DNA from: a virus
Lineage: Duplodnaviria > Heunggongvirae > Uroviricota > Caudoviricetes
IMG/VR virus record: IMGVR_UViG_3300021140_000485
Strand: one strand, 5' to 3'
DNA: 64,000 nt
Position 1 is the stretch's first letter; the number at the start of each line of letters is the position of its first letter. The notes below the pieces were generated by a model. That model did no database searches, was not told where the DNA came from, and worked only from the letters and a program-made list of their open reading frames with translations. The position numbers and the translations under genes are program-made. Below, in pieces: positions 1 to 46,020 of this stretch.

Positions 1-57
1 TAAAGAGTAAACTTTTTAAAAAGTGGAAATTGTGTCATTTATTTTTAAATATGTTAA

Positions 58-582
58 TTATTCAGCAGATTCAGTAACCATTTCTTCAACTACTTCCATC
101 ATCTGAATGTCCATAGATAAAGTAACGTTCTCACTTAGCAATACACCACCTGTTTCCAATGGTGCGTTCCACGTAAGACCGAAATCATTTCTATTGATTG
201 TACCTGTGATTTCCCATCCGTGTTTTGTATTTCCCCACGGGTCAACACTCATACCGTTATACTCAGTGTGAAGCCAAATTTCTTTGGTGATTCCTTTGAT
301 TGTAACACTTCCTGTAATTGTTGTCATATCTTCAATCATCTTACCTGCGAAAGTGATTGTAGGGTACTCCTCTGAGTTAAAGAAGTCCGCCGATTTAAGA
401 TGGTTATCTCTGTCAACATTCCCTGTGTTGATTGTGTTAGTGTTAATAGAGACGAATACACTTCCGTCTTCTTGTACACCACCACCAAAGGTACTGAAAT
501 TACCTTTAACCGTAGAAATCATTAAGTGTTTTACTTTGAACCCAACTTCTGAGTGGGCACTATCAATTGTCATTCTTTTCAT
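58..582 (-). CDS. YceI-like periplasmic (polyisoprenoid-binding) protein. The start is trimmed to the internal MKRM, because the upstream 51 codons of the ORF run through the 62-bp intergenic repeat.
   Basis: The 175-aa product has an N-terminal hydrophobic signal-like segment and a YceI-family beta-barrel composition. ATG at 582. Confidence 0.65.
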   Translation of the reverse strand: MKRMTIDSAHSEVGFKVKHLMISTVKGNFSTFGGGVQEDGSVFVSINTNTINTGNVDRDNHLKSADFFNSEEYPTITFAGKMIEDMTTITGSVTIKGITKEIWLHTEYNGMSVDPWGNTKHGWEITGTINRNDFGLTWNAPLETGGVLLSENVTLSMDIQMMEVVEEMVTESAE

Positions 583-645
583 AATATATTTTGTTTTGTT
601 AAAATATAGATATAATATTGGGTTAGGTAAACCCCCATTTAATAG

Positions 646-707
646 AATATGAAACCTGAGAATGAATGTAGGTGTGGTGTGTGAGGATTTATCCCGAACC
701 TCACCCA
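646..707. repeat. Copy A of a 62-bp intergenic element, 61/62 identical to 3611..3672. It contains the hairpin arms GTGAGG / CCTCAC when read on the minus strand.
   Basis: Direct sequence comparison. It lies 60 nt upstream of the minus-strand YceI-like gene. Confidence 0.85.
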
Positions 708-748
708 CATAGAGTGAGTGAACTGTATTGTCCATTACTCTTTTTTAA

Positions 749-1390
749 TTATACGTTCTCTCTAATTATTTTACATGGGTTACCGTATGCAACCACATTG
801 TCAGGGATATCTTTAGTTACAACTGAACCTGCACCTATAATAGAGTTCTTACCTATTTTAACTCTGTGTAATATGTTTGTCCCCATACCTATTGTTGTAC
901 CTTCCCCTATGGTTACGTTTCCCGCAATGTTGGTGCCAGGATTAATGGAACAATAGTCACCTATGATTGTGTGATGACCAATAGATACGTGTCTGTTGAT
1001 TGATACAAAATCCCCCACTGTGGTATGTGCTGCAATTGAAACCTTTGAGTTAATTAGAACCCCACGTCCGAGTTCACTCATGTGTGATATGTCCAAACCA
1101 TCGTGTATAACATTAATGAACTTATTAATGTCAGGATTTATTGTCTCTATAATCTTTATCTTATGTTGAGGTTGGTATACTCCGAGAACAATCTTATCGT
1201 AGTTGTTTAAATCCACATCATCAAACAATTCTATATTGAAACCATCATGTGTGAATGTATTAATAATCGGTAACCCCAAATTGTTGTATATGTGAATGTC
1301 AGGCATTCTTCTGTTTATTGAATATAAATTATCCAATATCATTGTTATTATACTATCCCCCTTACCGAGAATTAATAATTTTGTTTCCAT
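749..1390 (-). CDS. Hexapeptide-repeat (left-handed beta-helix) sugar N/O-acetyltransferase, NeuD/PglD-like.
   Basis: The C-terminal half is built of [LIV]GxxxxI hexapeptide repeats ('VSIGHHTIIGDYCSINPGTNIAGNVTIGEGTTIGMGTNI') and the N-terminal part is Rossmann-like, as in NeuD. Confidence 0.8.
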   Translation of the reverse strand: METKLLILGKGDSIITMILDNLYSINRRMPDIHIYNNLGLPIINTFTHDGFNIELFDDVDLNNYDKIVLGVYQPQHKIKIIETINPDINKFINVIHDGLDISHMSELGRGVLINSKVSIAAHTTVGDFVSINRHVSIGHHTIIGDYCSINPGTNIAGNVTIGEGTTIGMGTNILHRVKIGKNSIIGAGSVVTKDIPDNVVAYGNPCKIIRENV

Positions 1391-2189
1391 ATCCCTTTTC
1401 TCTTAATTCCGCAGATGTATAATGTTCCATATCAAATTCATCCATCAATCTGTGGGCTCTTTTTAATAACTGCATGTTGGTGGTTTTTTCCTTACCCCTA
1501 TAATATAAATTATCTTCCAAACCTATTCTGATTCCATCAAAATCCAATAACCCATAGGTCATACTCTTTAACTGTTGTGAACCTATTCCACCCAAACACG
1601 TAAATGAGTTCGTTGGTAAGTTATTTTTAATTGTTGATAACGTACCAAATTCACATTGACCATTGTAGATATTTCCCAAAATCATATTGATGTGGTGTGG
1701 AGACTTTAATATGTTCTTTGAAATAAGATAGTTTGTATAGTTTAACATACCCGTATCAAAACATTCTATCTCAGGTTGTACCCCGTATTTGTCCATCTCA
1801 TTAATTAAAGACAATATCATCTCAGGTTGGTTAACCGATGTTCCTGATGGGAAGTTTAATGATGACATTGTTAGTGAACCCATGTCAGGATATAATTGTA
1901 GAACCTCCGCTCTTTGTGATAGTTCAGGGAAATTCCTACCTGTTAATGAAACGCAAATCAATAACTCAGGACAATACTTCTTTATCCCCTCTATTATCTT
2001 CTGATATACTTCCTTCTTGTATGTATTTTCTAACGTAACCTCATCCCTTGCATGAAGATGAACAATGGATATACCAATCTCATTTGCACCTATTACCTCA
2101 TCCACAATCTCACTTGGAGTTAATGGAGCAAACGAATTAATCCTCGTTGTCTGAGTACCTGTTGGAGTAAAATTAATTATTTTCTTCAT
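1362..2189 (-). CDS. BKACE / DUF849 family enzyme (3-keto-5-aminohexanoate cleavage enzyme-like beta-keto acid cleavage).
   Basis: The N-terminal signature 'PTGT....PLTPSEI....A...G.SIVHLHARD' matches the Kce family TIM-barrel. Confidence 0.75.
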   Translation of the reverse strand: MKKIINFTPTGTQTTRINSFAPLTPSEIVDEVIGANEIGISIVHLHARDEVTLENTYKKEVYQKIIEGIKKYCPELLICVSLTGRNFPELSQRAEVLQLYPDMGSLTMSSLNFPSGTSVNQPEMILSLINEMDKYGVQPEIECFDTGMLNYTNYLISKNILKSPHHINMILGNIYNGQCEFGTLSTIKNNLPTNSFTCLGGIGSQQLKSMTYGLLDFDGIRIGLEDNLYYRGKEKTTNMQLLKRAHRLMDEFDMEHYTSAELREKGYGNKIINSR

Positions 2190-3141
2190 AAATTAGGTGA
2201 GATTTTAATTTAAAAATCTCTTTGAAAGTATCATCAAAATGTTTTTCGTATATTATTTTTTCTGAATTATCAATTCTGATGGTTTTTACCTCATCCATAG
2301 GATACAAATTTTCAATATACCAATGGTTAGGTTTTACATTCAAGGTATGCACTTCGGAATTATTTATAATAACAATTACAGTTTCCTCTTCAATTTTTTG
2401 TGAATTGTAGAAAAGTTTGATTTTGTTGTCTTTTTTATCATAAAAAAGAGTATAATGTAAATTTCTTTCGTAAAAATGTTCTCCCTTTTTGAAAAAACCA
2501 TTGAGTTCAGATTCTTTTCTAAACAAAACATTTGTGTGATTTTTGAACTCTGTTTTGGTAATATATTCCAAATTTACATTCTGTCCAAAATCTCTCATCC
2601 TTTTTTCAATCTCATCACGATTATAATCGGTGAACAATCGTGGTAATTTGTCAACCCTTACAGACTTTAAAGACCCAAACATAAACCCATCACTGTCACC
2701 AGTTGTTGTGTAAAGAATTGAGTCATAATTTTCTAATAACTCATTGTGTTGTTTTAAAATTTCTAAATCAAGGACCTCACAATCATACTCAATGTGATGT
2801 ATATTTTTATATCCAAAATTGATTGCAATTTGTGATGCGATTGAAAACATTCTGTAGATTGCAAACCCATAAAAGTTTTTTATGAAAAAAATGGATTTTA
2901 TGATTTTGTCACCAAAAGAAAAAAAGAAACCAGGAGGTAATAAATCTACGTCCTCAGAAGTATCATTCAAATAGTCGTAGAAATAAAAATTACATTTTTT
3001 TTGAATATGAAAAGGAATATGAGTGTGAGATAATAAGGCAATGTGATATCCACTTTTTGAAACAGAATCAATACACCTCTCAAGAGCTCTTTCTTGTTCT
3101 TCCGATGGACAATGAGCCGTTATAAAAATCAAATCTTTCAT
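2173..3141 (-). CDS. Hypothetical protein. It may be a nucleotide-sugar transferase-like protein within the glycan-modification cluster.
   Basis: 322-aa ORF that is Phe/Tyr-rich. There is no firm motif; its context is the acetyltransferase and BKACE genes. Confidence 0.5.
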   Translation of the reverse strand: MKDLIFITAHCPSEEQERALERCIDSVSKSGYHIALLSHTHIPFHIQKKCNFYFYDYLNDTSEDVDLLPPGFFFSFGDKIIKSIFFIKNFYGFAIYRMFSIASQIAINFGYKNIHHIEYDCEVLDLEILKQHNELLENYDSILYTTTGDSDGFMFGSLKSVRVDKLPRLFTDYNRDEIEKRMRDFGQNVNLEYITKTEFKNHTNVLFRKESELNGFFKKGEHFYERNLHYTLFYDKKDNKIKLFYNSQKIEEETVIVIINNSEVHTLNVKPNHWYIENLYPMDEVKTIRIDNSEKIIYEKHFDDTFKEIFKLKSHLIYEENN

Positions 3142-3176
3142 TCAATAAAAAATAACAAAATAACAAATTCTGTAAA

Positions 3177-3212
3177 TAAAAAACCCCCACTTTATGTGAG
3201 GGTCTATTTTAT
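3177..3212 (-). terminator. Intrinsic terminator of the conserved family: 'AAAACCCCCAC-tttat-GTGAGGG' followed by a T-run on the minus strand.
   Basis: GC stem with one conserved C·A mismatch, followed by U-run. It lies at the 3' end of gene 3209..3583. Confidence 0.6.
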
Positions 3213-3583
3213 TGTTTGTTAAACGTGAGTGTTATATCACCACCACTTTCAAATTCATTCCACGCTAAGAGTGTTTCTCCACCGTTTTGTGTCTGAGTCC
3301 ACGTCTTACCGTTTGCGTCCGCAATCATCTCAATAGTTTGGTCATTGTCCGCCATCCATCCACGGTCCACATACACTCCCGCCTCAGGACCAAATGAAAG
3401 GTTACCTTGCATATACCATACATTCTCCTGAACCCAAAATAAAAGACTCTTGGTGTTGTGTACCTCTGTTGATGACCACGACACTTGTGAATTCGGTCCA
3501 ATTGTTTGATTGCCAGGTCCAACACCATCAATAGTTAAATTGTATTCAGTGTTGTTGTTAATTGTAATATTTGCTTGCCACAT
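3209..3583 (-). CDS. Hypothetical small beta-rich (lectin-like?) protein.
   Basis: 124 aa, rich in N/T/G/W. Preceded on the minus strand by copy B of the 62-bp element. Confidence 0.55.
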   Translation of the reverse strand: MWQANITINNNTEYNLTIDGVGPGNQTIGPNSQVSWSSTEVHNTKSLLFWVQENVWYMQGNLSFGPEAGVYVDRGWMADNDQTIEMIADANGKTWTQTQNGGETLLAWNEFESGGDITLTFNKQ

Positions 3584-3610
3584 AATAATTTTTATTTATA
3601 AATAGTTTGG

Positions 3611-3672
3611 AATATGAAACCTGAGAATGAATGTAGGTGTGGTGTGTGAGGGTTTATCCCGAACCTCACCCA
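3611..3672. repeat. Copy B of the 62-bp intergenic element.
   Basis: 61/62 identity to 646..707. It lies 28 nt upstream of the start of gene 3209..3583. Confidence 0.85.
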
Positions 3673-3718
3673 TCGAAATGAATGAGTTGGTTTCATATTT
3701 ATCACATATTTATCACAT

Positions 3719-4090
3719 ATGAAGTATATCATCACCGAAAGTAAATTAAACGAATATATCCTTAGTGTCATTGAAGAAATGTTCCCTGTTGATGATATTA
3801 ATTATACTGAAGCGTATGACGATGATGGGAATCCTGACGATACTGCCTATGTGTTTTATCTTGGGGATTATGAAAATGATGAAGTTATCTTCAGATGGTA
3901 TAGTAAGGATTATTGGGATGGTCCAGACGAAAGTACAGTTGATTATAGGATTAGACAATCCCCACTTTTAGTTTTTGAATCCAATAATACCTTTTATGAA
4001 ATAAATTCTATGTTCCAAAATTTATGGAAACCCGTATTTATTAAATGGTTTTACGAATCATTTTCATTACCAATTAAAACAATACTTTAA
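3719..4090 (+). CDS. Hypothetical protein of the leader family ('MKYIITESKLNEY').
   Basis: Paralogous N-terminus with the adjacent gene. Acidic and aromatic-rich. Confidence 0.6.
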   Translation: MKYIITESKLNEYILSVIEEMFPVDDINYTEAYDDDGNPDDTAYVFYLGDYENDEVIFRWYSKDYWDGPDESTVDYRIRQSPLLVFESNNTFYEINSMFQNLWKPVFIKWFYESFSLPIKTIL

Positions 4091-4091
4091 T

Positions 4092-4451
4092 ATGAATTAC
4101 CTCATCACCGAATCTCAGCTTGAATCTTTGGTAGAACAAAAATCCCCGAACAAAAACTTTGATAGATACAAAAAGATTATTATGAAAATGTTCCCTGAGA
4201 TTACTATGATGTTCTTAGGTGATAGTGTGGAAGGTTGGAGTTCATCTGATAATAAAGCATATCAAAAACAAATTATTAAAGTTGTATTTGACCCACGTAA
4301 AATCACTCAAGGTGAATACTTTGATGGATATTCTTATGACGCATATGAATCGTGTCGAAAAGTCCGTAAATTTATGATGTATGACCTTAATATGGACTTT
4401 GGTCGGCAGTGGGATTTAGATTGTTATCAAATCACTCTTAAAAAACTCTAA
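4092..4451 (+). CDS. Hypothetical protein of the leader family ('MNYLITESQLESL').
   Basis: Tandem paralogue of 3719..4090 with different codons but the same N-terminal peptide. Confidence 0.6.
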   Translation: MNYLITESQLESLVEQKSPNKNFDRYKKIIMKMFPEITMMFLGDSVEGWSSSDNKAYQKQIIKVVFDPRKITQGEYFDGYSYDAYESCRKVRKFMMYDLNMDFGRQWDLDCYQITLKKL

Positions 4452-4661
4452 TCTTTCTGATGCCGGGACCGAATCTTCCCCTACCCCTTCTTTGGTTATA
4501 ATCCCCACAATATCTGATAACCTTACGTTCATCGTTACCTTATTGTCAGTTAATCCTACATATAATTCAGGGTTGCCAGGAACTACATAAAAATCCTTTA
4601 TGGTCCATTCCTTTTCGTTGTAACTAATCTTCTTACTTATGATTGGAAATGCGTCTCTCAT
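4416..4661 (-). CDS. Hypothetical protein.
   Basis: 81-aa ORF that overlaps the 3' end of the plus-strand gene. Weak support. Confidence 0.35.
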   Translation of the reverse strand: MRDAFPIISKKISYNEKEWTIKDFYVVPGNPELYVGLTDNKVTMNVRLSDIVGIITKEGVGEDSVPASERLEFFKSDLITI

Positions 4662-4666
4662 AAAGA

Positions 4667-4822
4667 TTAAATATCTTTCTTGAGTCTAAATGTACACGCA
4701 GGTTTTCCATTAATTAGTGGCATTCCGTGTTCATCGTATGTGATTGACTTAACCACAACCTTTTTGTTCTTAAATCTACCCATAAGAACCGTGTCCCCCA
4801 CTTTGATGTCAATCTTAATCAT
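4667..4822 (-). CDS. Small KOW-like protein (51 aa), not in the ORF track.
   Basis: Manual translation gives 'MIKIDIKVGDTVLMGRFKNKKVVVKSI...', which resembles a KOW motif. Confidence 0.35.
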   Translation of the reverse strand: MIKIDIKVGDTVLMGRFKNKKVVVKSITYDEHGMPLINGKPACTFRLKKDI

Positions 4823-4825
4823 TGA

Positions 4826-5254
4826 TTAAACTGTTGGTCCACATCCAGGATTTTTGTTTGGTGAGGTACATTTAACACCCGTGTAAAAGTCAAACTTCTG
4901 TGGTTGGACTCTTATGTTATCCCACTCACCGAAATACTCTTTAAACTTACCGTTCTTAATCCTCTCCCTTATCTCATCTAATTGTGGTGTGTATTTGTTT
5001 TGTTGTTTGGCACCATACATAACACTCTCTATCTTTGCTTTGAAGAACGCTCCTGTGGGTCCGAGTTCTACAGGTGTTGATTGTGAAGTATCTTTGGTAT
5101 CATAAAACTTACCGTTCTCACCTTTAACATAGTAACCTAAAAGACTATCAATATCTTTTTCTAATCCACTTAAAACAGTTACAGGGTCTTTACCTTGTTC
5201 AGATATTACACCCATAACTTCCTTAATTCTTGATATTTGTTCTTGTAGGTTCAT
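4826..5254 (-). CDS. Hypothetical protein with the leader 'MNLQEQISRIKEVMGVISEQ'.
   Basis: Its first 28 nt are identical to those of the next gene. Confidence 0.65.
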   Translation of the reverse strand: MNLQEQISRIKEVMGVISEQGKDPVTVLSGLEKDIDSLLGYYVKGENGKFYDTKDTSQSTPVELGPTGAFFKAKIESVMYGAKQQNKYTPQLDEIRERIKNGKFKEYFGEWDNIRVQPQKFDFYTGVKCTSPNKNPGCGPTV

Positions 5255-5255
5255 A

Positions 5256-5693
5256 TTAACAATCTCCTATACCATAAAAAATGCAGTCAATAAGTTCTGC
5301 ATCATTTTTATCCCATATGTAAACCATAGAATCATTATCATTCATTCTATCCCTACATAATCTATGGTGTCCATCTATTACAATTAGTTTTCCCTTGTGT
5401 TTGTATAAATGAATATCTTTTTTATCATATGTTTCATCGGACATATCATTTACGTAGTCCATATTAATATCCTTTTGAACACTATAAACTTTCTTTGTTG
5501 GTGACAATCTTTGTTTTTTTGGGTTAAGTGTGTGTATTAATTCATCACTATCATTTACCACCATATCAAAAATGTTTGTGGATTCTAAATCTTTTTTTAA
5601 TTCAGGTTCGTACATAATTCCACAGTCTTTATGACTTTCGGTTATCATCCCCATCATTGATTGTATTCTTGATATTTGTTCTTGTAGGTTCAT
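5256..5693 (-). CDS. ParB/Srx-like nuclease-domain protein with the leader 'MNLQEQISRIQSMMGMITES'.
   Basis: The motif 'LIVIDGHHRL' is the DGHHR signature of ParB-like nuclease domains. Confidence 0.65.
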   Translation of the reverse strand: MNLQEQISRIQSMMGMITESHKDCGIMYEPELKKDLESTNIFDMVVNDSDELIHTLNPKKQRLSPTKKVYSVQKDINMDYVNDMSDETYDKKDIHLYKHKGKLIVIDGHHRLCRDRMNDNDSMVYIWDKNDAELIDCIFYGIGDC

Positions 5694-6478
5694 TACTTTT
5701 TATTCTTAACACAGTTAGGATATCTTTTACCAAACATCGTCTTCATACCTTTTTGAGTATATCCTTTCCAACATCTTTCAGTAATCTCGGTCTCACTTAA
5801 CGAACCTTTTAATTCATCTGCTTGTCGAGCTCGTAATTTCATCAAATACATTCGTTCAATCCACTCATCAGGCTCTTTTTGAAGTTCATCCTTCTTAAAT
5901 AAAGTATTTGGAATAATAAAGTCAATCATTTCGTCTTTGGTAATACCTTCAGGTTTTGTTGGTGGTGGAACACACACACTATTCATTTCTTGGTCTACAG
6001 ATATCTCATCAACATCAATATCATCCCTACCAACTATTTTATTTACCTCATCCAATTGTGTATCTTCAAACCACTGAAGCATCAAGTGAGTCAAATAAGT
6101 CCCTCTAAGTGATAGAATATTTAAAGTTTCTTTGAACTTACCTTTTGGTATAAATAACGTTCCTGATATAAATGCTCGTTCCATCATTTTTCTTGGGTCA
6201 TCCCACACACTTTCATCGTTGTGGAAAAATAATGCCAATTCCATTATAATTTTCCCGTCCTTACACCATTCCAAATCGTATCTTGTCTCATAATGTTTTA
6301 TAAGATATACATTGGAACCCTCAACATACTTATTCAGAATGTTATAAACCACTTTTTCTATATTAGGCGTAGGCTTAGTATATTTGGACCTAATCTGTTC
6401 CATCAATATTTCTTTAACACAATTCGTCAAGTTCATAATAATAAATACTTGGTTAATATTTATATTAACAATAGCCAC
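5693..6478 (-). CDS. Hypothetical protein.
   Basis: 261-aa ORF with a basic Cys-containing C-terminal tail. Confidence 0.55.
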   Translation of the reverse strand: MAIVNININQVFIIMNLTNCVKEILMEQIRSKYTKPTPNIEKVVYNILNKYVEGSNVYLIKHYETRYDLEWCKDGKIIMELALFFHNDESVWDDPRKMMERAFISGTLFIPKGKFKETLNILSLRGTYLTHLMLQWFEDTQLDEVNKIVGRDDIDVDEISVDQEMNSVCVPPPTKPEGITKDEMIDFIIPNTLFKKDELQKEPDEWIERMYLMKLRARQADELKGSLSETEITERCWKGYTQKGMKTMFGKRYPNCVKNKK

Positions 6479-6502
6479 CCTGTTATCAGGGCAATTTAGG
6501 AC

Positions 6503-6549
6503 CGTTACCGTTTCGGTAACAAAAAAAAGGGGAATTCGCTACTCCCCTT
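6503..6549 (-). terminator. Tandem hairpin terminator (GTTACCG-ttt-CGGTAAC and GGGGA-n9-TCCCC), with A/T-runs on both sides.
   Basis: Perfect inverted repeats. Lies at the 3' end of gene 6551..7174. Confidence 0.6.
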
Positions 6550-6550
6550 T

Positions 6551-7174
6551 TTATTTTAAACTCTCAGGTAAATAAAGTAATGTTGGGTTTTTCTTTTGAA
6601 TATCAACATCAGGATATCTTTCCTTGAATTTCATTGTATTGAAGGGTTGTGTGATGATGTGTACCCCACTCCTTGTTTTAATGTATGTCATAAATGTATC
6701 CCTACCATCTTCCTTATGTAACTCATTAATGAATTCTCTCATAGAAGTGTAATAACTGTTATGTGCAAAGTTATCAAGACTTACATTGTCAATATCAATA
6801 ACCCAACGTTTCTCTTGTGTTTTAATTTGACCAACAACAGAATCAAACAGGTGTTGTTGTTTTAGGTTTCCGTCCTGAATTCTTTGAGCAAGGGCGACCA
6901 TCATATTCAATGATACATCTTTGTGGTTTTGCTTTTGAACGTGAATATATGCACGAGCTTTGAACATCTCACAGAGTTGTTTAATCTCTTCATATCGTTT
7001 TTCAAGATACTCAATACTACTAACACAATATGTTTTAATAGTCCTAACCGATTGGTGATTATCTCTTTCACCTTCAGGTTGGTCTTTCTTTCTCTTGAAG
7101 ACATAGAGCATATAAAAATCACCCTCGTTTTCGAAGTTAAGTAGTTGTTTTATTTGTAGTATATTATCTATCAT
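6551..7174 (-). CDS. Hypothetical protein.
   Basis: 207-aa ORF. Confidence 0.55.
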   Translation of the reverse strand: MIDNILQIKQLLNFENEGDFYMLYVFKRKKDQPEGERDNHQSVRTIKTYCVSSIEYLEKRYEEIKQLCEMFKARAYIHVQKQNHKDVSLNMMVALAQRIQDGNLKQQHLFDSVVGQIKTQEKRWVIDIDNVSLDNFAHNSYYTSMREFINELHKEDGRDTFMTYIKTRSGVHIITQPFNTMKFKERYPDVDIQKKNPTLLYLPESLK

Positions 7175-7177
7175 AAA

Positions 7178-7420
7178 TTATTTTATAAATGTATTATAAA
7201 TTGCGGAGTTGGCAATAAAAAATGCACACCAACCTAAAATACTCATAACCACCACATATCCAACATAAAGTTCATCTTTATTGTCGAATTGAAATTTTAA
7301 ATATTCTTTGAATGATTTCATATCAACAAGTTTACTGACGGTCCAATGCATCAACAAAACCTCCAATACACCAACTAAAATTAAAATAAACAATACCATC
7401 ATTTCCATATTTTTTTCCAT
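7178..7420 (-). CDS. Small membrane protein (two predicted TM helices).
   Basis: Hydrophobic segments 'VLFILILVGVLEVLL' and 'VVVMSILGWCAFFIA'. Confidence 0.5.
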   Translation of the reverse strand: MEKNMEMMVLFILILVGVLEVLLMHWTVSKLVDMKSFKEYLKFQFDNKDELYVGYVVVMSILGWCAFFIANSAIYNTFIK

Positions 7421-7680
7421 CGGTTTTTAATTTCATCACCGTAACAAATAACAACCCCCAGTAAAAATATACCAAGAACCGTCCCTATAATTGTGTAAAA
7501 GTGTTCAGGTCTCATAATCTATAATTTAAAAAAGTTTATCGTACAACCATCTGAATACATAATCGACTCCTCTAAAGATAACGTAAACAAGACAATAAAG
7601 TAGGAGGAGGTAGATTAAAATCATACCACAAAGATATAATCTTATTTTGATATAACCAACACGACCACTATTTATTTTTA

Positions 7681-7953
7681 ATGGATAACGCAATCGTCAT
7701 AAAAAAACTACTACTAGCCCTTTTGAGGAGACAGTACCCCGAAATTGTTGATGTCGTAGTTAGTGTTAGAAAGGACCCTATGTTAGAATATCGCACAGAT
7801 TATTTTATCTACATTGGAGTCGCTTATAAGGACTTGTTAAATATCAATGCAAGTAAAATGATGAACGATGCCAGAGAAATTGTTTACGATGTTGCAGGAG
7901 GAAGAAATAGTTTTAATAGCGTTTCAATTCAAACCTATGACCCGAATAATTAA
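7681..7953 (+). CDS. Hypothetical protein.
   Basis: 90-aa ORF on the minority strand. Confidence 0.45.
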   Translation: MDNAIVIKKLLLALLRRQYPEIVDVVVSVRKDPMLEYRTDYFIYIGVAYKDLLNINASKMMNDAREIVYDVAGGRNSFNSVSIQTYDPNN

Positions 7954-8381
7954 GTTGTTGAATTAATCGACTCAGCAATCATCTTTTTAAATTTTGTCGT
8001 ACTCCATCCGTGAGAACGATTTAAATAATGAATGTCAATTGGAAGTTCCTTACCAGTAAAGTCTTTATCTTTGTAATCATCACCCAGGAATCTCACACCA
8101 GGACTTACTTTCAAAATAAGTTCAACCAATTCTTTTTCTGTTGTGTAGGTTGAGACCTCATTAACGTATTTAAGTGATAACAACATTTTGACTCTCTCCT
8201 CAACACTTAGGATTGGTTTTAACTTCTCAGGTCTTTCGATGGTTGGGTCAGTGTGCAACAACACGTGGACCCAATAACAATGTTCTTTCATCTCTTTGAA
8301 CATCTCGATATATCCAGGATGGATAACATCAAAATTACCAGCAATCACACCAATACTATACTTCTCACTATTTGGTTTCAT
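7950..8381 (-). CDS. Cytidylyltransferase-like nucleotidyltransferase (TagD / RfaE-domain-II fold).
   Basis: 'GVIAGNFDVIHPGY' matches the (T/H)xGH nucleotidyltransferase motif, with HPGY as a variant. 143 aa. Confidence 0.65.
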   Translation of the reverse strand: MKPNSEKYSIGVIAGNFDVIHPGYIEMFKEMKEHCYWVHVLLHTDPTIERPEKLKPILSVEERVKMLLSLKYVNEVSTYTTEKELVELILKVSPGVRFLGDDYKDKDFTGKELPIDIHYLNRSHGWSTTKFKKMIAESINSTT

Positions 8382-9760: not shown

Positions 9761-9762
9761 AT

Positions 9763-9795
9763 AAAAACCCCCACTTTAAGTGAGGGTTTTTTGTT
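9763..9795. terminator. Bidirectional intrinsic terminator of the conserved family ('AAAAACCCCCAC-tttaa-GTGAGGGTTTTTT').
   Basis: Lies between convergent genes, with U-runs on both strands. Confidence 0.7.
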
Positions 9796-10017
9796 TTACC
9801 AAGATTCAACATCAGTTAAATCAATTTCAACCTTAGCCAGGTGACTATAAACCACAAGACCATTTCCAATTCCTGTTGGAGTTATTTTCCAAGTGAATGT
9901 ACCATATTCTCCATAAATCGCTTTAATGTGTGATAACCATTCGTCATACATTTCCTGTTGTTTCTCATTAAGTTCCTCGTGAATTACAGTTTTTCTTATT
10001 TTATTCTCTTCCATCAC
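9796..10017 (-). CDS. Hypothetical protein.
   Basis: 73-aa ORF, 4-nt overlap with the RNA ligase gene. Confidence 0.45.
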   Translation of the reverse strand: MMEENKIRKTVIHEELNEKQQEMYDEWLSHIKAIYGEYGTFTWKITPTGIGNGLVVYSHLAKVEIDLTDVESW

Positions 10018-11027
10018 TTCTCGTTTAATAAGAATTTATTACTGATTGCTTTGAAACTTATTTTGGTATCGTAAGACCTAACCACAACACCTTCACGTTC
10101 AGTATTCCTGTTTAATACGGAACTACCTTCAGCATATTTTAACATACCTTCAACAGAATTTGGTAACAAGAAGTCCATCTCCAAGAAAGGAACATAATCA
10201 AAACCACAATTCTCCATAAGGTCAACAAACTTTGGCATAGTATATCTAACACCATTATCAATGTCAAAGGCGTTGAAGAACTTTACCATCTGACCTTTAA
10301 TTTTGTATGGGTTACCCTGAATACCTTCACCAATTAATTCACCTTGTAAACAAACGTTTTTGCCCAATGAACTTAACTTTTCTTCTATGTTCATTTCACG
10401 AGCAACTTTCCAAAAAGTATTACCTTCAGTTTCTAAAAGTTCCAAATTACGAGAACAAACACCAAACTCACCTTTTCTAAAGTAGAATGTTGCAGATGAA
10501 CCATCCAACTTTTCAGTTACGTAAAATTTGTGTTCACTCCTGTAACACATCGCAGAGTATTCAACAGAGATGTTCTGAACCCTTTCCTCATCAGTTTTGT
10601 GTAAGAACGATGGGAACGGACCTTTGACTTTACCAGCAAGTTCTGCGGGGATTGGTGGTTCGTATTTAACGATACCCAATCTCTCGGTAACATCAAGACC
10701 CTCATAAGCTGTCCAACCAAAGTCCCCGAAGACACTCATAGGTAAGATTAAACCTTGTGAAACTTGTCCACGAAGTTTAATGGTTTTTAAACGGAAACCT
10801 TCTTGGTCACCCATTTTTTTGTAAGACGATTTACGCAAGAACTCGAAATCTTCTTTGATTGGTAGGAATGAATCAATCTCACAGTATACACACAAGTCAC
10901 CAGGTTCGTATTCACCTTTCTTGGTAACAACCTTCCAACCTCCTACAACGGCAACTTCAATCGCATCGGCTCCGACGATTTCTTGGATGTCAGTAACTTT
11001 TCTAATAGACGCTAATTTTCTTTCCAT
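10014..11027 (-). CDS. ATP-dependent RNA ligase, DraRnl/Rnl5-like (N-terminal OB-like domain plus nucleotidyltransferase).
   Basis: Adenylation motif I 'TEKLDGSS' (KxDG) and covalent nucleotidyltransferase motifs are present. The N-terminus 'GADAIEVAVVGGWKVVTKKGEY' resembles DraRnl. Confidence 0.75.
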   Translation of the reverse strand: MERKLASIRKVTDIQEIVGADAIEVAVVGGWKVVTKKGEYEPGDLCVYCEIDSFLPIKEDFEFLRKSSYKKMGDQEGFRLKTIKLRGQVSQGLILPMSVFGDFGWTAYEGLDVTERLGIVKYEPPIPAELAGKVKGPFPSFLHKTDEERVQNISVEYSAMCYRSEHKFYVTEKLDGSSATFYFRKGEFGVCSRNLELLETEGNTFWKVAREMNIEEKLSSLGKNVCLQGELIGEGIQGNPYKIKGQMVKFFNAFDIDNGVRYTMPKFVDLMENCGFDYVPFLEMDFLLPNSVEGMLKYAEGSSVLNRNTEREGVVVRSYDTKISFKAISNKFLLNEK

Positions 11028-11743: not shown

Positions 11744-12456
11744 TAACCAACATCTTTCTTAAAATGCTCAATGTTGTGTCTGTTAAAATAGTTGCTTATT
11801 ACCAATCTAATCATTCCAAAATACCCCATCTTTAGAAATCTACGATTATCTTGCCCAACATAGTGTTTTGATATTTGGAACTTTTTTGGACTGTATTGTT
11901 TACTGAGATGATAATCTTCTGAGTGTTGGAGTGTTTCATCGAACCCATCTGTACTGAAGAACGCACTACGAGTTGTCATAAAATAAGTCCCTAACGCAAA
12001 CGGAACTTTCTTTTTCATAATGTGATTAATCCTGTTGAAAATCTTAAATATCATTTCACATTTAACATCACCATTTATACACCTAACATTACAAGTCAAC
12101 AAATCAAGGTTGTTATCCTCCATTTGTTTTAACGTGTCTTTTATTTGATTTGGGTTTAATAACGTTGAGTCAGCATCAAGGAATAAAATATATGGTGTAG
12201 TACTTCTCATCGCACCTTGATTTCTCCCGTAAGCTACAGGACCACCATTAATCAACTCAATTTTGATTGTTGGCTCATAATAAGTTTTTAAAGACTTAAC
12301 TAAGTCTCTTGTACCATCGGTGCTCTTAGCGTCTGCGACAATAACTTTAGTTCCCCAAATCCCATTTTGTGAAGCGATACTTGTAATTGTAGCATCAATA
12401 TACTTCCATTCATTATAGGATGGTATCACAATTGTTAGTTTATCTTTAATACTCAT
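11737..12456 (-). CDS. Family-2 glycosyltransferase.
   Basis: 'LTIVIPSYNE', 'VIVADAKSTDGT' and 'LFLDADS' (DxD) are GT-A fold motifs. Confidence 0.8.
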   Translation of the reverse strand: MSIKDKLTIVIPSYNEWKYIDATITSIASQNGIWGTKVIVADAKSTDGTRDLVKSLKTYYEPTIKIELINGGPVAYGRNQGAMRSTTPYILFLDADSTLLNPNQIKDTLKQMEDNNLDLLTCNVRCINGDVKCEMIFKIFNRINHIMKKKVPFALGTYFMTTRSAFFSTDGFDETLQHSEDYHLSKQYSPKKFQISKHYVGQDNRRFLKMGYFGMIRLVISNYFNRHNIEHFKKDVGYW

Positions 12457-14847: not shown

Positions 14848-14868
14848 AAATATGTTAAAAACAAAAAA

Positions 14869-14896
14869 CCCCACCGTTAAGTGGGGTTCAAGATTA
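14869..14896 (-). terminator. Intrinsic terminator (CCCCAC-cgttaa-GTGGGG, a perfect stem) with a U-run on the minus strand.
   Basis: Lies at the 3' end of the cyclophilin gene. Confidence 0.65.
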
Positions 14897-15343
14897 AATC
14901 AATTCCATAGAATTGATTTGGTCACCTTGTTGGAGTTGGTCAATGATATCAACACCTTCAACAATCTTCCCAAAACAGGTATGATTACCGTCCAAGTGTT
15001 GGGTGTTCTGTCTATTGTGACAGATAAAGAACTGTGAACCTCCTGTGTTACGACCAGCGTGTGCCATTGAAAGAACACCTTTATCGTGGAATTGTTTTGG
15101 CGCTGTTACTTCACATTGGATTGTGTATCCAGGTCCTCCATTTCCAACACCGTTAGGACAACCACCTTGGGCAACAAATCCAGGAATCACTCTATGGAAA
15201 TTAAGTCCGTCATAGAATTTCTTGTTAATCAAACTCTTAAAGTTTTCTACCGTGATTGGAGTTTCGTTGTCATACAACTCCGCAATCATATCACCTTTTG
15301 CTGTTGAGATTTTTACTTTACTCATATATCTTGTTTTTAACAA
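14894..15343 (-). CDS. Cyclophilin-type peptidyl-prolyl cis-trans isomerase.
   Basis: 'FHRVIPGFVAQGG' and 'GGSQFFIC' are cyclophilin signatures. Confidence 0.85.
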   Translation of the reverse strand: MLKTRYMSKVKISTAKGDMIAELYDNETPITVENFKSLINKKFYDGLNFHRVIPGFVAQGGCPNGVGNGGPGYTIQCEVTAPKQFHDKGVLSMAHAGRNTGGSQFFICHNRQNTQHLDGNHTCFGKIVEGVDIIDQLQQGDQINSMELI

Positions 15344-17366: not shown

Positions 17367-17380
17367 ACTCGTTTTTTTAA

Positions 17381-17406
17381 AAAACCCCCCACCGAAGTGA
17401 GGGGTT
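17381..17406 (-). terminator. Conserved-family terminator ('AAAACCCCCCAC-cgaa-GTGAGGGG'). It sits about 185 nt 3' of the stop of gene 17591..18025.
   Basis: Stem plus minus-strand U-run. The intervening 185 nt contains no convincing ORF. Confidence 0.5.
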
Positions 17407-17590
17407 AGTGTGTTGGCTAGGTTTTCTTCAATAAAGGTTTTAATGAGTTTTAAGGTTTGACTCTCTCAGTGATTTTTGAACAGGTGAACAATCTAATTTT
17501 TGAATACTTTAACGTCATCAATTATCTAATGGATAGTAGAGTTTTTATGTAACTAAATCTCCAAAAACACCAACCAAACACAACTTTCTT

Positions 17591-19626: not shown

Positions 19627-19914
19627 ATGGCCGACAGGAATTTTTATATGAGAAGAGTATTGACCAAAATTGTAAAAAATATGGTTAGTAAAAATCCTGC
19701 ATTCAAAAATATTCGTTCAGTTGAAATACAATTCTTACTTAAATCTCCTGTTAGAAGCGCAATGTGTGATTGGGTTTATGGTCTTACTATCAAGACATAT
19801 AACGATGATGTTAACCAACCTCAAATAATTTCTCAAATAAAAGAAAGAATTGATTCTGTTACATCACAACTAACAAAAGACACTTTCTGTCTCACCGACT
19901 ATTACTTCGAGTAG
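19627..19914 (+). CDS. Hypothetical protein.
   Basis: 95-aa ORF. Confidence 0.4.
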   Translation: MADRNFYMRRVLTKIVKNMVSKNPAFKNIRSVEIQFLLKSPVRSAMCDWVYGLTIKTYNDDVNQPQIISQIKERIDSVTSQLTKDTFCLTDYYFE

Positions 19915-21029
19915 TCGTATTTACGAAAAATCCCATCTACCGTATGTAACGCTTGAGCAACCACTTGGTGCATATCATAATAAGCATAGGTCCCAAGTCT
20001 ACCCCCAAATATGTATTTAGATTCAGACTCTGTCAATGATTTATATTTTTCATAAATCTCAACATTTTTACCGTCTCTGATTGGGTAATATGGTTCGTTC
20101 TCACCAGTATACTCACAAGAGTATTCCTTACTGATATAAGTACCTTTTTGATTCTTAGGGTCAAACCATTTATGTTCTAATATTCGAGTATACTTAGTAT
20201 CAGAATCAGTAAAATTCATTACAGGGTTTCCTTGGAAGTTGTCAACTTCTAATTGGTAATTCTCCCATCTAAGACTACGATATTCCAATCGACCAAATTC
20301 GTAATCGTAAAACTTATCAATTGGTCCTGTGTAAATTATCTTATCAGATAAAGACTCAAGGATATCTCTATTCTCAAAAAAATCAAATTCAGTCAGTACT
20401 TCAATACCTGATAGTAGTTTTTCAAAAATTTGGGTATAACCTCCGTCAGGAATTCCTTGGTACTTGTCATTGAAATAATTGTTATTCCAAGTAAATCTAA
20501 CAGGTAATCTTTTAATAATGGATGGTGGTAGTTCAGAACATTTCTTATCCCATTGTTTCTCAGTATAACCTTTAATCAACTTTTCATATATGTCAGTCCC
20601 TACCATTGAAAGAGCTTGTTCTTCCAAATTAGTGATAGGTCCCTTATATTTTTGTTCATCAATCATATACTGTGCCTTTTCAGGTGTGTTAACACCCCAC
20701 AGTTGATTGAATGTCCACATATTGAAAGGTAATGAGTAAATCTCACCCTTATAGTTAGCCAAAGGTGAATTAACAAACTGATTAAAAGTTGCAAATCTGT
20801 TTACGTAGTTCCAAACTCTTTCATCATTAGTATGGAATATGTGAGCACCATACTTGTGAACGTGTATACCGTCTATATTTTCAGTATAACAGTTTCCACC
20901 GATATGATTTCTTTTTTCAACAACTAATACGTTGAATTTCTTACTTAGTTCGTGGGCGCAGATTGCTCCAAAGAGACCTGCCCCCACGATTACAAAGTCA
21001 TAATGTCTATAGGAAGTCAAAAACGACAC
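19902..21029 (-). CDS. glf: UDP-galactopyranose mutase.
   Basis: N-terminal FAD fold 'YDFVIVGAGLFGAICAHEL....VEKRNHIGGNCYT' and length/sequence colinear with Glf. Confidence 0.85.
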   Translation of the reverse strand: MSFLTSYRHYDFVIVGAGLFGAICAHELSKKFNVLVVEKRNHIGGNCYTENIDGIHVHKYGAHIFHTNDERVWNYVNRFATFNQFVNSPLANYKGEIYSLPFNMWTFNQLWGVNTPEKAQYMIDEQKYKGPITNLEEQALSMVGTDIYEKLIKGYTEKQWDKKCSELPPSIIKRLPVRFTWNNNYFNDKYQGIPDGGYTQIFEKLLSGIEVLTEFDFFENRDILESLSDKIIYTGPIDKFYDYEFGRLEYRSLRWENYQLEVDNFQGNPVMNFTDSDTKYTRILEHKWFDPKNQKGTYISKEYSCEYTGENEPYYPIRDGKNVEIYEKYKSLTESESKYIFGGRLGTYAYYDMHQVVAQALHTVDGIFRKYDYSK

Positions 21030-26219: not shown

Positions 26220-27170
26220 TTCTGGCACTTAGGTTGAGAATACACCTTCGATTAAGAATCTTTAGGGACATTATTGTTTCTTCCCGTTTCCACTACCTTT
26301 TGAGTAGTAATTCTTAGTGACGGTTCCTTAGGGGTACCATTCCTTGAGTCGTGCGGTTACTCTCTTTGTACTTGTTACTCTCCGAGGTTGCCACCCCAGT
26401 GAATCCTTGCGGGATTAGAGAACTTTCTCAAGAATCATTTGGGTCTTGGGAACCCATAATGGCAATGAACATCTCATTACTATGTAGTCACCTTTCGCCT
26501 ACGACTGACAGACACTTTTCCTTCGTCTTTTAGTATTTGCATACTTCAAAATGCAAAGTTGTTGGTCTGTGGATGGTGAAAGTAGCGGTCTGCCAACCAG
26601 ACAAGCCATCTTTTGAACGACTCGATACTGAACTACTCTCTGAGATATCCCTACCTCGATACTTCAAGAAATCTTCATAATTAAAATCTTGGTAGATTCT
26701 AACTAAGGTTACCAACAGCACCACCTGTACGATAACATGACTTTCGTCTTTAAGACACCTCTGATATTGAATCCCGTGATTGTAAAGTTGGATGACTTTA
26801 CTTCTCACAACAATTCTACGAGTTATTCTTATTGTTCTTCCGAACTCAACTCAACGACCCACATCGCTGAGTCATCATTCCATTTTGTCTACAGTGTCAC
26901 CCTCGACTACTCAGGAACAATGATATCCCGCTTGCCTACTCGAGCTCTAAGAACCGAAGTTCAAAGAACCGCAGTCTCCGTTAACCTTCGGAGACCACTT
27001 TATCCCACTTTCGTGGTTTATTTATTGACCATAGGCGGCCAATTATCTTATTTACTAACCTGTTGGTTAGAAGGATAATCAAATATGTAAAAGAACGTGT
27101 TTCGTTAATTGTTTCACAAAGTTAAGAAGATTATTTTAATCTGTCAAGCACTTTGTAAAAGTTTTTTTTG
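26220..27170 (-). ncRNA. Candidate structured noncoding RNA or 3' trailer co-transcribed with tRNA-Met. About 950 nt, elevated GC, no ORF longer than 113 aa in any frame.
   Basis: Bounded by the tRNA (5' side on the minus strand) and a strong terminator (3' side). The frame-track ORFs here are short and non-protein-like. Identity unknown. Confidence 0.3.
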
Positions 27171-27244
27171 TTGCGGGAGTCGGACTCGAACCGACGGCCT
27201 CAAGGTTATGAGCCTTGCGAGCTACCAACTGCTACCACCCCGCG
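27171..27244 (-). tRNA. tRNA-Met (anticodon CAU), initiator-like.
   Basis: Reverse complement reads 'CGCGGGGTGGTAGCAGTTGGTAGCTCGCAAGGCTCATAACCTTGAGGCCGTCGGTTCGAGTCCGACTCCCGCAA'. It shows a cloverleaf, a C1·A72 mismatch, a GTCGG/CCGAC T-stem and TTCGAGT T-loop, the anticodon loop CTCATAA, and no encoded CCA. Confidence 0.85.
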
Positions 27245-27474
27245 ATATATTTTAAAGAACGTGATTCGAAAAAAAATCCCAAAACTTATATCCTCTCGAA
27301 CACTCATTTTGGGATTTGGGGTTTGAGGATTCTACTCCTCTTCTTCCGAGTGTCTCACAAACTTACGAACAAATTTTGGACTTGTCAAATTGTTTATGAA
27401 ACTTTTTTTGGGGGTATTATCTACCTTTCGGTAGAGTTTTATAAATATATGCTAAAATTGGAAAAAACCAAGTC

Positions 27475-31465: not shown

Positions 31466-31492
31466 TTAAAAAGAAAACCCCCACTTTTTTAG
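31466..31492 (-). terminator. Conserved-family terminator ('AAAACCCCCAC-tttttta-GTGAGGGTT').
   Basis: Overlaps the stop of the methyltransferase gene, with a minus-strand U-run. Confidence 0.6.
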
Positions 31493-33532: not shown

Positions 33533-34696
33533 TTAATCGTTATAAATTGAACCACTTTTATTTTCAGACTCTTCGAATTGATGTTGTTCCATAATATCTT
33601 TAAGTGGTGATTTTTGAGTATCAACTTTAGTATTCATATTATGAATAATCTTATCAAGAGTTAATGCAAAGTCCAGAGTTTCGGATATGATACCAACAAT
33701 TTTATATGGGTCACCATTTGATGCCGGTCTACGGTCTTCAACATAACCCTTCCATTCTTTTGATGTAGACAATGGAACTCTGATTGATGCACCTCGGTCA
33801 GCAACCCCCCAACTAAACTTGTCAATAGATTGGGTTTCGTGTTTACCAGTCAAACGAAGATTGTTATCAGAACCGTAATTGTTAATGTGTAACTGATGAC
33901 GTGAATCAAAGGCGTTAAAGATGTTTTTGAAGTATTCATCACCACCTTCATTTCTCATCTTGTCATTTGAGAAGTTACAGTGTAATCCTGAACCATTCCA
34001 ATCACCCATCACAGGTTTAGGGTGGAATTCAATCTTAAAACCATAGTCCTCAGACATTTGTTGTAAAATGTATCTCGACATCCACAAATCATCACCGGCC
34101 TTTAATTTACCTTTGGAGAATACCTGGTACTCCCACTGACCCAATAAGACCTCGGCGTTTGTACCTGTAATTTCAATACCTGCCAAGATACAATTTTCCA
34201 TATGAGTATCCACAAATTTTCTACCGTTAACTTGTCCGTTACCTACACCACAATAGTATTTTCCTTGTGGTTCAGGATATCCATTCTCAGGGAAACCCAA
34301 AGGTCTACCATCTTTCATAATGGTATACTCTTGTTCAAAACCAAACCAAAGGTCCTCTTCTTCTTCCCCAACAAGACTTCTTGTATTTGATACGTGTGGA
34401 GTCCCATCGGGATTCATAACCTCACACAACACCAAGAAAGACCATAGACCACCTTCGTTAAGTGAGTTGTGATAAACTCTAACAGGTTTCAAAATACAAT
34501 CAGAAAAATGTCCGTCAGCTTGTTGTGTTGATGAACCATCAAAACTCCACTCAGGGCAATCCTTCAGTGTTATAATATCCCCATATGGAATATTCTGAAG
34601 ACCAGTCTCTTCTTTTTCAATCACCTTAACCTTACTTCTAAGATTAGGTTCTGGCTGATACCCATCCAACCACACATATTCTAATTTAACTTTCAT
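33533..34696 (-). CDS. Glutamine synthetase type-II-like protein.
   Basis: 'LEYVWLDG', 'FDGSSTQQADG..SD..L.PV', 'LVLCEV', 'GVADRGASIRVP' and 'NGDPY' are colinear with the GSII beta-grasp and catalytic domains. Confidence 0.75.
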   Translation of the reverse strand: MKVKLEYVWLDGYQPEPNLRSKVKVIEKEETGLQNIPYGDIITLKDCPEWSFDGSSTQQADGHFSDCILKPVRVYHNSLNEGGLWSFLVLCEVMNPDGTPHVSNTRSLVGEEEEDLWFGFEQEYTIMKDGRPLGFPENGYPEPQGKYYCGVGNGQVNGRKFVDTHMENCILAGIEITGTNAEVLLGQWEYQVFSKGKLKAGDDLWMSRYILQQMSEDYGFKIEFHPKPVMGDWNGSGLHCNFSNDKMRNEGGDEYFKNIFNAFDSRHQLHINNYGSDNNLRLTGKHETQSIDKFSWGVADRGASIRVPLSTSKEWKGYVEDRRPASNGDPYKIVGIISETLDFALTLDKIIHNMNTKVDTQKSPLKDIMEQHQFEESENKSGSIYND

Positions 34697-42400: not shown

Positions 42401-42602
42401 TGTTTGTAACTGTATTAGCACTTAAATTTGTATTTTGTACTTGGAATATAGGTGCTGTCTTGGCAATTTTTAGATATGTTGTTGTTTGATTTACAACATA
42501 ATTCAATGTAGAACTAGAATATACCAAATCACTTCGAGTATTCCCCGAATCATAAAATTGTATTGTTATACTTGCAGGTACTATTATTATATTCTCAGCC
42601 AC
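39444..42602 (-). CDS. Collagen-like (Gly-X-Gln triplet) fibre protein with a C-terminal intramolecular-chaperone / peptidase S74 domain. Candidate tail fibre.
   Basis: About 290 uninterrupted G-x-Q triplets. The C-terminus '[12 protein letters not shown]....FKWR......GFIAQEV' matches the SDxRLK auto-cleaving chaperone signature. The N-terminal roughly 90 aa is non-repetitive. Confidence 0.85.
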
Positions 42603-46017: not shown

Positions 46018-46020
46018 ATA

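Follow-up and report, generated by a model that had tools for sequence, protein, structure and literature searches.

What is the repeat that occurs twice near one end of the tailed-phage record IMGVR_UViG_3300021140_000485 (Caudoviricetes) in IMG/VR? In the 64,000-nt stretch of this record that we analyzed (hereafter, the window), the repeat belongs to an element of about 95 nt, a conserved folded spacer that lies at the boundaries of gene cassettes and contains no promoter. Two copies, A and B, enclose one such cassette (Table 1). The element recurs in a clade of uncultured large phages, and the differences among natural variants are just those that recombination between copies predicts. Such recombination, rather than a promoter shared by two genes, best explains why the repeat occurs twice, and the element very probably serves as a crossover point for cassette exchange. 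As to its function, we see an even chance that it is a transcribed intergenic RNA signal, acting in 3′-end formation, protection, or processing of the upstream message and insulating the next unit.

How extensive is the repeat? A reading made from the DNA letters without database searches (the sequence-only reading) had reported a 62-nt duplication, and the duplication is real: the string occurs exactly twice in the window, at plus-strand positions 646-707 and 3611-3672, and none of 100 dinucleotide-preserving shuffles reproduced it. A repeat finder (family D16) lengthens each copy by one base, to 645-707 and 3610-3672, with 62 of 63 positions identical and a single mismatch (A at 687, G at 3652). 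The only two sites of the pattern GTGAGG-N12-CCTCAC in the window are these same copies. The homologous unit is longer still, reaching on the minus strand from 738 to 645 in copy A and from 3700 to 3610 in copy B, according to profile and covariance-model searches. Copy B scores 96.7 bits against the covariance model (E = 1e-24; nhmmer E = 2e-22) and copy A 74.8 bits; an unfiltered scan of all 64 kb with the same model returned only these two, and the next-best match, apart from the reverse strand of copy B, reached 15.8 bits (E = 0.35). What had looked like a further shared motif, with three exact copies of GGTTTCATATT, consists of both strands of the copy B closing stem and of copy A.

Is the unit folded? 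Its consensus is a single long imperfect hairpin, a rod with fold energies of -24 to -36 kcal/mol, composed of a closing stem that varies in sequence, an internal loop that is conserved, and an upper stem rich in GC. The common long type has the closing stem GAUAAUGGA/UCCAUUAUC and then a short stem, UCAG/CUGA; the large internal loop carries UUCAYUCAC on its 5′ strand and GUUCAYUC on its 3′ strand, and in the upper stem UGUG-GGUG pairs with CACC-A-CACA, followed by GU with AC and GGG with CCC below a 5-nt loop. For 33 distinct sequences, RNAalifold gives 26 pairs, 15 of which show compensatory changes, and 96.7% of the cells on this structure are paired. The number of double-change cells is 58 versus 10.5 ± 2.6 in shuffles, none of 500 of which reached 58; sliding the partner by one to three columns leaves two to four covarying pairs, and every covarying pair lies outside the bases fixed by the search pattern. 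Compensation is found low in the upper stem (UGUG/CACA; GGUG/CACC in the copy B type; UAAA/UUUA in locus L151; GGAG/CUCC in L123 and L131) as well as in the closing stem (GATAATGGA/TCCATTATC, GTAATGGA/TCCATTAC, AATATGAAACC/GGTTTCATATT in copy B, and AATAATACAATACAT/ATGTATTGTATTATT). The covariance model also recovers diverged same-strand copies in several loci, which keep the closing stem and both TTCAYTCA loop motifs and have wholly different upper stems that covary in turn (AAAGGGAGAC/GTCTCCTTT followed by TT, ATGGTCGG/CCGACCAT, and GGGTGTC/GACACC); TTTTT comes after one diverged upper stem, as in an intrinsic terminator. Because the same motif is read 5′ to 3′ on both loop strands, the internal loop is two-fold symmetric, which suggests that a dimeric factor may recognize the folded strand.

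The sequence-only reading was right that a hairpin is present, although the stem it drew, a 6-bp GTGAGG/CCTCAC pairing, is only a competing register and gives way on covariation to the rod. The "CA-rich tract" it described is the 3′ strand of the upper stem and pairs with TGTGGGTG. A second candidate hairpin, TCAYTCAY/RTGGGTGA, also competes with the rod, which the alignment backs. The arms had further been equated with those of a terminator family in the window; these terminators read CCCTCAC-loop-GTGGGGG-T-run on the minus strand, the opposite arm order to that of the element.

How far does the family extend beyond the window, in the related phages where further copies had been thought worth seeking? 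Pattern scans for the apical part of the element located it in six IMG/VR contigs of 17-79 kb, as a single copy in each, and in 37 metagenome contigs, some of them named marine or TARA; the number of viral carriers is put at three to six. About 40 distinct versions have been recovered from viral and metagenome contigs. Relatives of the 322-aa gene of the cassette sit on viral contigs of up to 335 kb; the clade thus includes very large phages. In L181, a locus with an identical YceI protein, a third copy lies about 1 kb past the left edge of the window, at the TAA of a 92-aa gene. Four metagenome contigs end within the element and five more end no more than about 115 nt away, as is expected where an assembler meets a repeat. 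Relative to L001, the core of the element is better conserved than the flanking coding DNA (88-92% identity for the element versus 75% for the operon). From copy to copy the core stays almost unchanged, with different genes beside it.

Searches for known counterparts of the element were negative. A megablast of window positions 1-8000 against isolated phages gave no match; Rfam 15 gave none for the element at the gathering score, in the window or in the relatives, and none covering the element at E values up to 10; and ARAGORN reported no tRNA-like gene at the element. A resemblance to the 3′ half of a tRNA (TTCGGG loop, CACCA) was dropped, given a loop of 12 nt and the negative ARAGORN result. 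We likewise set aside 111 loci from a 15-mer search of viral contigs, nearly all of them chance matches, and matches in two bacterial metagenome-assembled genomes that were at chance level for the pattern and had no covariance-model match. The element does not appear to be coding: open reading frames (ORFs) differ by version, with 10 codons ending at the TGA in GGGTGAGG in the long type, 34 codons in a different frame in copy B, and a third frame that runs into YceI in copy A, and substitutions within them are mainly non-synonymous.

Where does the element lie relative to genes and promoters? In relatives the TAA that ends the upstream gene is usually where the element begins. This TAA (in GATAATGG) stands 28 nt before GTGAGG, at the same position in at least five gene families (defined as C-terminal sequences without cross-match), and in five families the stop codon falls within the closing stem; copy A and the L151 copy lie 8-13 nt after the stop. 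The genes upstream in relatives are fam1, fam1-fam3, fam1-fam3-fam2, or fam4, and in each case the join is at the stop codon. The genes on either side may be in tandem, divergent (copy B, L001, and L117), or convergent (about a dozen contigs, e.g., L113), and in L001 the sole element occupies the divergent spacer upstream of the operon. A promoter scan found no sigma-70-like site within 645-738 or 3610-3700, and neither copy contains a match to TTTG-N17-22-TAnnTTTG, which we take to be the Bacteroidota promoter type. Recognizable promoters are always downstream of the element, among them host-type sites in L001 and L138.

Does the element coincide with gains and losses of genes? Three metagenome contigs, L114, L130, and L147, align to the window from 4823, 4449, and 4539, respectively, down to 3610 and then continue straight from 708 to 1. 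The 64-nt overlap at the join is the element itself, present as a single copy. They represent the same locus without a unit of 2,965 bp, which comprises one repeat copy and the cassette of the 124-aa gene, its terminator, the 322-aa gene, the BKACE gene, and the hexapeptide transferase gene; across the element, their identity to the window steps from 87-93% to 96-98%. A fourth locus, L128, carries the cassette and is colinear with the window over 1965-3881, with identities of 100% for the 124-aa gene and terminator, 97.8% for the element, 96% for the BKACE gene, and 60.6% for the 322-aa gene. In the closest relative of the operon, L151 (91%), the 124-aa gene follows the transferase gene behind a terminator, not behind an element, and the element comes 2 kb further on, after two endonuclease-like genes.

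Copy A is itself a hybrid. Its 5′ 31 nt (738-708; GTAATGGACAATACAG TTCACTCAC ...) belong to the L151/L181 subtype and its 3′ 63 nt (707-645) to the copy B subtype, and because two subtypes are combined, the closing stem cannot form and one pair of the upper stem is lost. The third copy, in L181, is of the subtype that supplies the 5′ half of copy A. Other hybrids are L115 and the group L124, L137, and L144, which carry the closing stem of the second subtype.

The simplest mechanism is a crossover inside the conserved core of two elements, which would have created the 63-bp direct repeats; these could recombine again, dropping the cassette or releasing it as a circle; a locus of the L114 type would be the product, or else the source, of recombination between such repeats. 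At the RNA level, the element would be co-transcribed with the upstream gene and act in cis between genes. The folded element may label or shield the 3′ terminus of the message from the gene upstream, or it may halt or process transcripts that read through toward the next promoter, with a dimeric factor perhaps recognizing the symmetric loop, as at the RNase III sites of phage T7 or the stem-loop half of the promoter-early stem-loop (PeSL) of T4.

Several observations weigh against an RNA signal of this kind. That the element works as RNA rather than DNA, and on which strand, we infer only. Gene orientation favors the element strand as sense, since at least one neighboring gene is co-oriented with it in every context; fold energy favors the complement, which as RNA has the more stable fold, by about 6 kcal/mol, in 32 of the 33 versions. 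On the element strand, A.C mismatches also outnumber G.U pairs. The 33 aligned sequences include many close relatives and correspond to about 6 to 8 independent lineages, and IMG/VR contigs of 37-79 kb mostly carry one copy. The main subtype lacks a U-run, its minus-strand upper stem being followed by ACACC or TACATTC, and it is therefore not a canonical terminator; the terminator scan reported neither copy A nor copy B, and the doubt already voiced about an ordinary intrinsic terminator was well placed. Copy B has no co-oriented upstream gene and lies 18 nt from a divergent ATG, so a sense transcript could cross it only by read-through or from a promoter within the divergent gene. The 124-aa gene, finally, starts 26 nt from the element with no recognizable promoter of its own, and a promoter overlapping the 3′ end of the element is possible for it.

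That short distance also favors the explanation first proposed, in which the element gives the YceI-like and 124-aa genes a common promoter or operator, perhaps one recognized by the sigma factor that the phage encodes at 62651-63460, or else co-regulates them as a 5′ leader. Both window copies do lie upstream of co-oriented minus-strand genes, as the sequence-only reading had noted, and the window encodes a sigma-70 family protein. In relatives, however, the elements are anchored to upstream stop codons, and copies away from gene starts, which that reading had itself named as evidence against a promoter, are exactly what was found: about a dozen are followed by a convergent gene and thus precede no gene start. 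Promoters lie downstream of the element, with neither a sigma-70-like nor a TTTG-N19-TAnnTTTG match inside it; the 124-aa gene of L151 does without it; the covariation marks a folded strand, not a linear protein-binding site; and with only two copies in 64 kb, it can be no general phage promoter. We regard this explanation as improbable. Equally improbable is a signal for processive antitermination, like lambda nut or HK022 put, through which polymerase would read past the terminators that follow small genes. The conserved linear motifs flanking a hairpin of variable sequence would fit such a signal, as would the order of gene, intrinsic terminator, and further genes after the window and L181 copies, yet many copies precede a convergent gene and leave nothing to read through, one subtype itself has a terminator-like hairpin with a T-run, and no N-like or Q-like factor was identified. 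An incidental, functionless segmental duplication, recently copied in error and with a hairpin in it by chance, would account for two copies in the window with 62 of 63 positions identical; about 40 distinct homologs, strong compensatory covariation, and a core better conserved than the coding DNA around it already contradict this idea, which we consider very improbable indeed.

Could the element instead act, or move, as DNA? A recombination site would be formed by folded single-stranded DNA or a cruciform on which a dimeric recombinase or structure-specific nuclease inserts and excises cassettes, in the manner of integron attC. The element often begins at the stop codon of a cassette gene, structure is kept while stem sequence varies, the internal loop is two-fold symmetric, and genes are gained and lost directly beside it; the stem changes are nearly all from one Watson-Crick pair to another, with few G.U, and genes read from their motifs as homing-endonuclease-like adjoin the L151 copy. 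Against this stand the absence of the attC cores RYYYAAC and GTTRRRY, the genes that lack an element of their own (e.g., in fam1-fam3-fam2-element), the lack of an integrase among the genes examined, and the chimeric copy A and 63-bp identity, which fit an ordinary homologous crossover with no dedicated enzyme. We hold a DNA-level site to be unlikely, though ahead of the other alternatives. A more specific version, less likely again than the mobile element considered next, is a so far undescribed cassette-exchange system in the variable regions of large phages, in which a dimeric phage enzyme would bind the two-fold symmetric TTCAYTCA loop in folded DNA or RNA and cut or join there, inserting cassettes precisely at stop codons as a phage counterpart of attC recombination.

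A selfish element resembling a miniature inverted-repeat transposable element (MITE), with its transposase encoded elsewhere and the closing stem as terminal inverted repeat, is unlikely as well and ranks behind the DNA-level site. It would be short, with inverted-repeat ends, intergenic in several flank combinations, and multi-copy in the lineage, with assemblies breaking at it, all of which is seen. The target-site duplications that had been suggested as a check are absent from the flanks of all of the roughly 40 copies inspected, and the terminal repeats vary while the interior is near-invariant, the opposite of MITE families. Moreover, in five gene families the 5′ end falls exactly on a stop codon, and relatives vary in the adjoining genes rather than in the presence of the element at a continuous site. 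Among 183 loci, all on contigs, no filled and empty pair differing by exactly the element turned up. No transposase was seen among the nearby genes, to which that search was confined. An RNA structure and a small mobile element had both been named as candidates in the sequence-only reading, sensibly for an element that is folded and repeated; the classical MITE is unsupported, because target-site duplications are missing and the terminal repeats vary in sequence. We prefer the RNA signal, followed by the DNA-level site, the MITE-like element, antitermination and promoter at equal figures, and incidental duplication, six estimates that sum to just under one.

Which known systems does the element resemble? 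PeSLs in T4-type phages combine a terminator stem-loop with a strong early promoter of the sigma-70-like type, and a genome of 170 kb has about 50 of them (Arbiol et al. 2010, PMC2839356; Comeau et al. 2014, PMC4122927). Like the element, they are short conserved intergenic stem-loop motifs at or near the upstream stop codon, concentrated beside small genes of unknown function in variable regions; the motif bounds indels and replacements between close relatives, and direct repeats flank cassettes that could be excised as circles. The element differs in having no promoter consensus inside, and so falls outside the PeSL definition; it is also a rod of about 95 nt whose internal loop is conserved and symmetric and whose stems covary, it is far rarer (two copies in 64 kb), and it occurs in an unrelated group of uncultured phages. 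In effect, then, it would resemble a PeSL: a stem-loop module, conserved and intergenic, at which accessory genes are delimited and shuffled. The RNase III sites of the T7 early genes, which Dunn and Studier are said to have described in 1983, are reportedly repeated intergenic hairpins whose cleavage leaves a protective 3′ hairpin. The likeness here is one of architecture and position only, lower and upper stems being split by an internal loop just after the upstream stop codon; the internal loop of the element is far more strongly conserved and symmetric, and we claim no sequence similarity.

The REP/BIME, ERIC, and Neisseria Correia elements of bacteria are imperfect palindromes of 35-155 nt in transcribed intergenic regions and are recombination hotspots; they are often co-transcribed as hairpins in 3′ untranslated regions, where they affect mRNA stability or processing. 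All are chromosomal, with tens to hundreds of copies, and those of the Correia type have terminal repeats that are conserved and a TA duplication. The element shows neither the chromosomal setting and high copy number nor the conserved terminal repeats and TA duplication. Integron attC sites lie at the 3′ end of a gene cassette, often overlapping its stop codon, are recognized as a folded structure of variable sequence, and mediate cassette gain and loss. The element shares the position at the cassette 3′ end, often over the stop codon, the fold of variable sequence, and the association with gain and loss of cassettes. It differs in that the R″ (RYYYAAC) and R′ (GTTRRRY) cores are absent from the closing stems (GATAATGGA/TCCATTATC, AATATGAAACC/GGTTTCATATT, and others), that elements do not follow every gene, that the proteins scanned include no integrase, and that its center is conserved while its base varies, the reverse of attC.

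The coordinates of the element and of neighboring features are collected in Table 1. The distances of 60 and 28 nt originally given between the repeat and the two start codons are corrected there, while the YceI-like assignment is upheld by its Pfam match. The description of both gene products as secreted is not borne out: the YceI domain starts at residue 5, and inspection of the two N-termini reveals no hydrophobic stretch of the signal kind. Pfam gives no match for the 124-aa protein.

Table 1. The element, its parts, and neighboring features in the window and in two relatives
Feature	Position	Strand	Basis or remarks
Element copy B, complete	3610..3700	-	Covariance model, nhmmer, fold
Copy B closing stem	3699-3689 (AATATGAAACC) paired with 3621-3611 (GGTTTCATATT)	-	Fold
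Copy B 5′ loop motif CTCATTCAT	3686-3678	-	
Copy B upper stem and apical part	3674-3636	-	
Copy B 3′ loop motif ATTCATTCTC	3632-3623	-	
Element copy A, chimeric	645..738	-	Covariance model, alignments, fold, comparison with L151 and L181
63-bp shared stretch, copy A side	645..707	.	Repeat finder
63-bp shared stretch, copy B side	3610..3672	.	Repeat finder
Cassette between copies	708..3609	-	124-aa gene, terminator, 322-aa gene, BKACE gene, hexapeptide transferase gene
YceI-like gene	58..582, ATG at 582	-	Pfam PF04264, E = 6.8e-41; 62 nt downstream of copy A
124-aa gene	3209..3583, ATG at 3583	-	26 nt downstream of copy B
Divergent 123-aa gene	3719..4090	+	ATG 18 nt past copy B 5′ end
Intrinsic terminator AGACCCTCAC ATAAA GTGGGGGTTT + T-run	3181..3205	-	Terminator scan, repeat families D13 and D14; closes 124-aa unit
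Promoter-like site TTTACC-17-TATATT	603..631	-	Consensus match only; between copy A and YceI start, outside element
TTTG-N19-TATTTTTG	Before 317-aa gene, L001		Host-type promoter downstream of element
TTTG-N19-TATCTTTG	L138		Host-type promoter downstream of element

Other repeated or mosaic stretches lie near the element. Directly before the ATG at 3719, an 11-nt tandem duplication (ATATTTATCAC twice, plus strand, window 3690-3718) overlaps the 5′ end of copy B. The gene at 3719 and the one at 4092 have similar N-termini, MKYIITESK and MNYLITESQ, and two adjacent small genes share conserved N-terminal coding sequence (MNLQEQISRI... at 5179-5254 and 5618-5693; 76 nt, 74% identical); such conserved small-gene N-termini are found again in relatives, e.g., L001, and may be further portable stretches of homology. 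Terminators with a near-identical stem (AAAAACCCCCAC..GTGAGGG on the plus strand) occur at window positions 3177-3214, 9761-9798, 14862-14899, 17378-17415, and 31467-31487 and coincide with mosaic boundaries, identity to L128 falling from 100% to 61% at 3142. The 322-aa gene (window 2190-3141) is a further mosaic patch, of which IMG/VR relatives have copies 95-100% identical. Of the two endonuclease-like genes of L151 (9117-10618), judged from motifs, one has repeated CPKHGDF zinc-ribbon motifs and a Vsr/DUF559-like C-terminus and the other is T5orf172-like.

In relatives, the long form of the element carries a "module 2" of three CCATTAYCGTAA-like repeats that is absent from the window; the three repeats of about 14 nt (CCATTATCGTAA / CCATTACGGTAA / ACATTACGATAA) follow the element at L001 3545-3585 and at L113 1725-1680 and 1095-1020. 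The ACGGTAATCYACAT motif, also absent from the window, occurs alone upstream of a nearby gene in relatives as well, and recombination between such motifs has apparently deleted that gene in L121, L129, and L136. Just 3′ of some element copies lies a conserved, ORF-free stretch with many G-runs and C-runs, about 650-800 nt long (L181 about 1800-2600, plus strand; L151 about 11760-12420, plus strand; L113 about 1000-400, minus strand). No Rfam family matches it at the gathering score; it is possibly a large non-coding RNA.

What kind of host and genome does the window represent? The TTTG-N17-22-TAnnTTTG motif is enriched in it (11 sites versus 4.3 expected, with no shuffle reaching 11), often just upstream of start codons. 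This motif and the lack of Shine-Dalgarno sequences lead us to infer that the host is probably a member of the Bacteroidota; a tblastn search with the sigma factor gave only distant matches at about 35% identity and was uninformative on the host. Besides T-run terminators and the sigma-70 family gene, the window contains a tRNA and a GOLLD RNA. The latter is full-length (26231-26640, minus strand; Rfam RF02032, 307 bits, E = 4e-87), with tRNA-Met(CAT) just upstream on the same strand (27170-27244) and a TTTG-N-TAnnTTTG promoter-like site upstream of that (27358-27389, minus strand). Three very long ORFs on the minus strand (1052, 1140, and 1087 aa; about 39444-49284) consist mostly of 9-nt-periodic, collagen-like Gly-X-Y repeats, with a higher-order period of 66 nt around 43.4-45.2 kb. 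Auxiliary genes unusual for a phage encode a UDP-galactopyranose mutase (19902-21029), a glutamine synthetase-like protein (33533-34696), a full DnaJ (53523-54458), and an RNA ligase (10014-11027). Most large proteins of the window have no PHROG or Pfam match.

What does the element mean for these phages? It is an uncatalogued structured nucleic-acid motif with unusually clear covariation, comprising 15 compensating pairs and subtypes with fully replaced upper stems, and it comes from a clade of uncultured large phages in which almost nothing is annotated. It also offers a view of modular accessory-gene evolution in natural populations, through a locus found with and without a 3-kb, four-gene cassette and joined exactly in the element. 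If it proves to be an RNA signal for processing or insulation, or a dedicated recombination site, it would explain how small accessory genes are swapped without breaking neighboring expression units, and it would provide a marker for cassette boundaries in metagenomic phage genomes.

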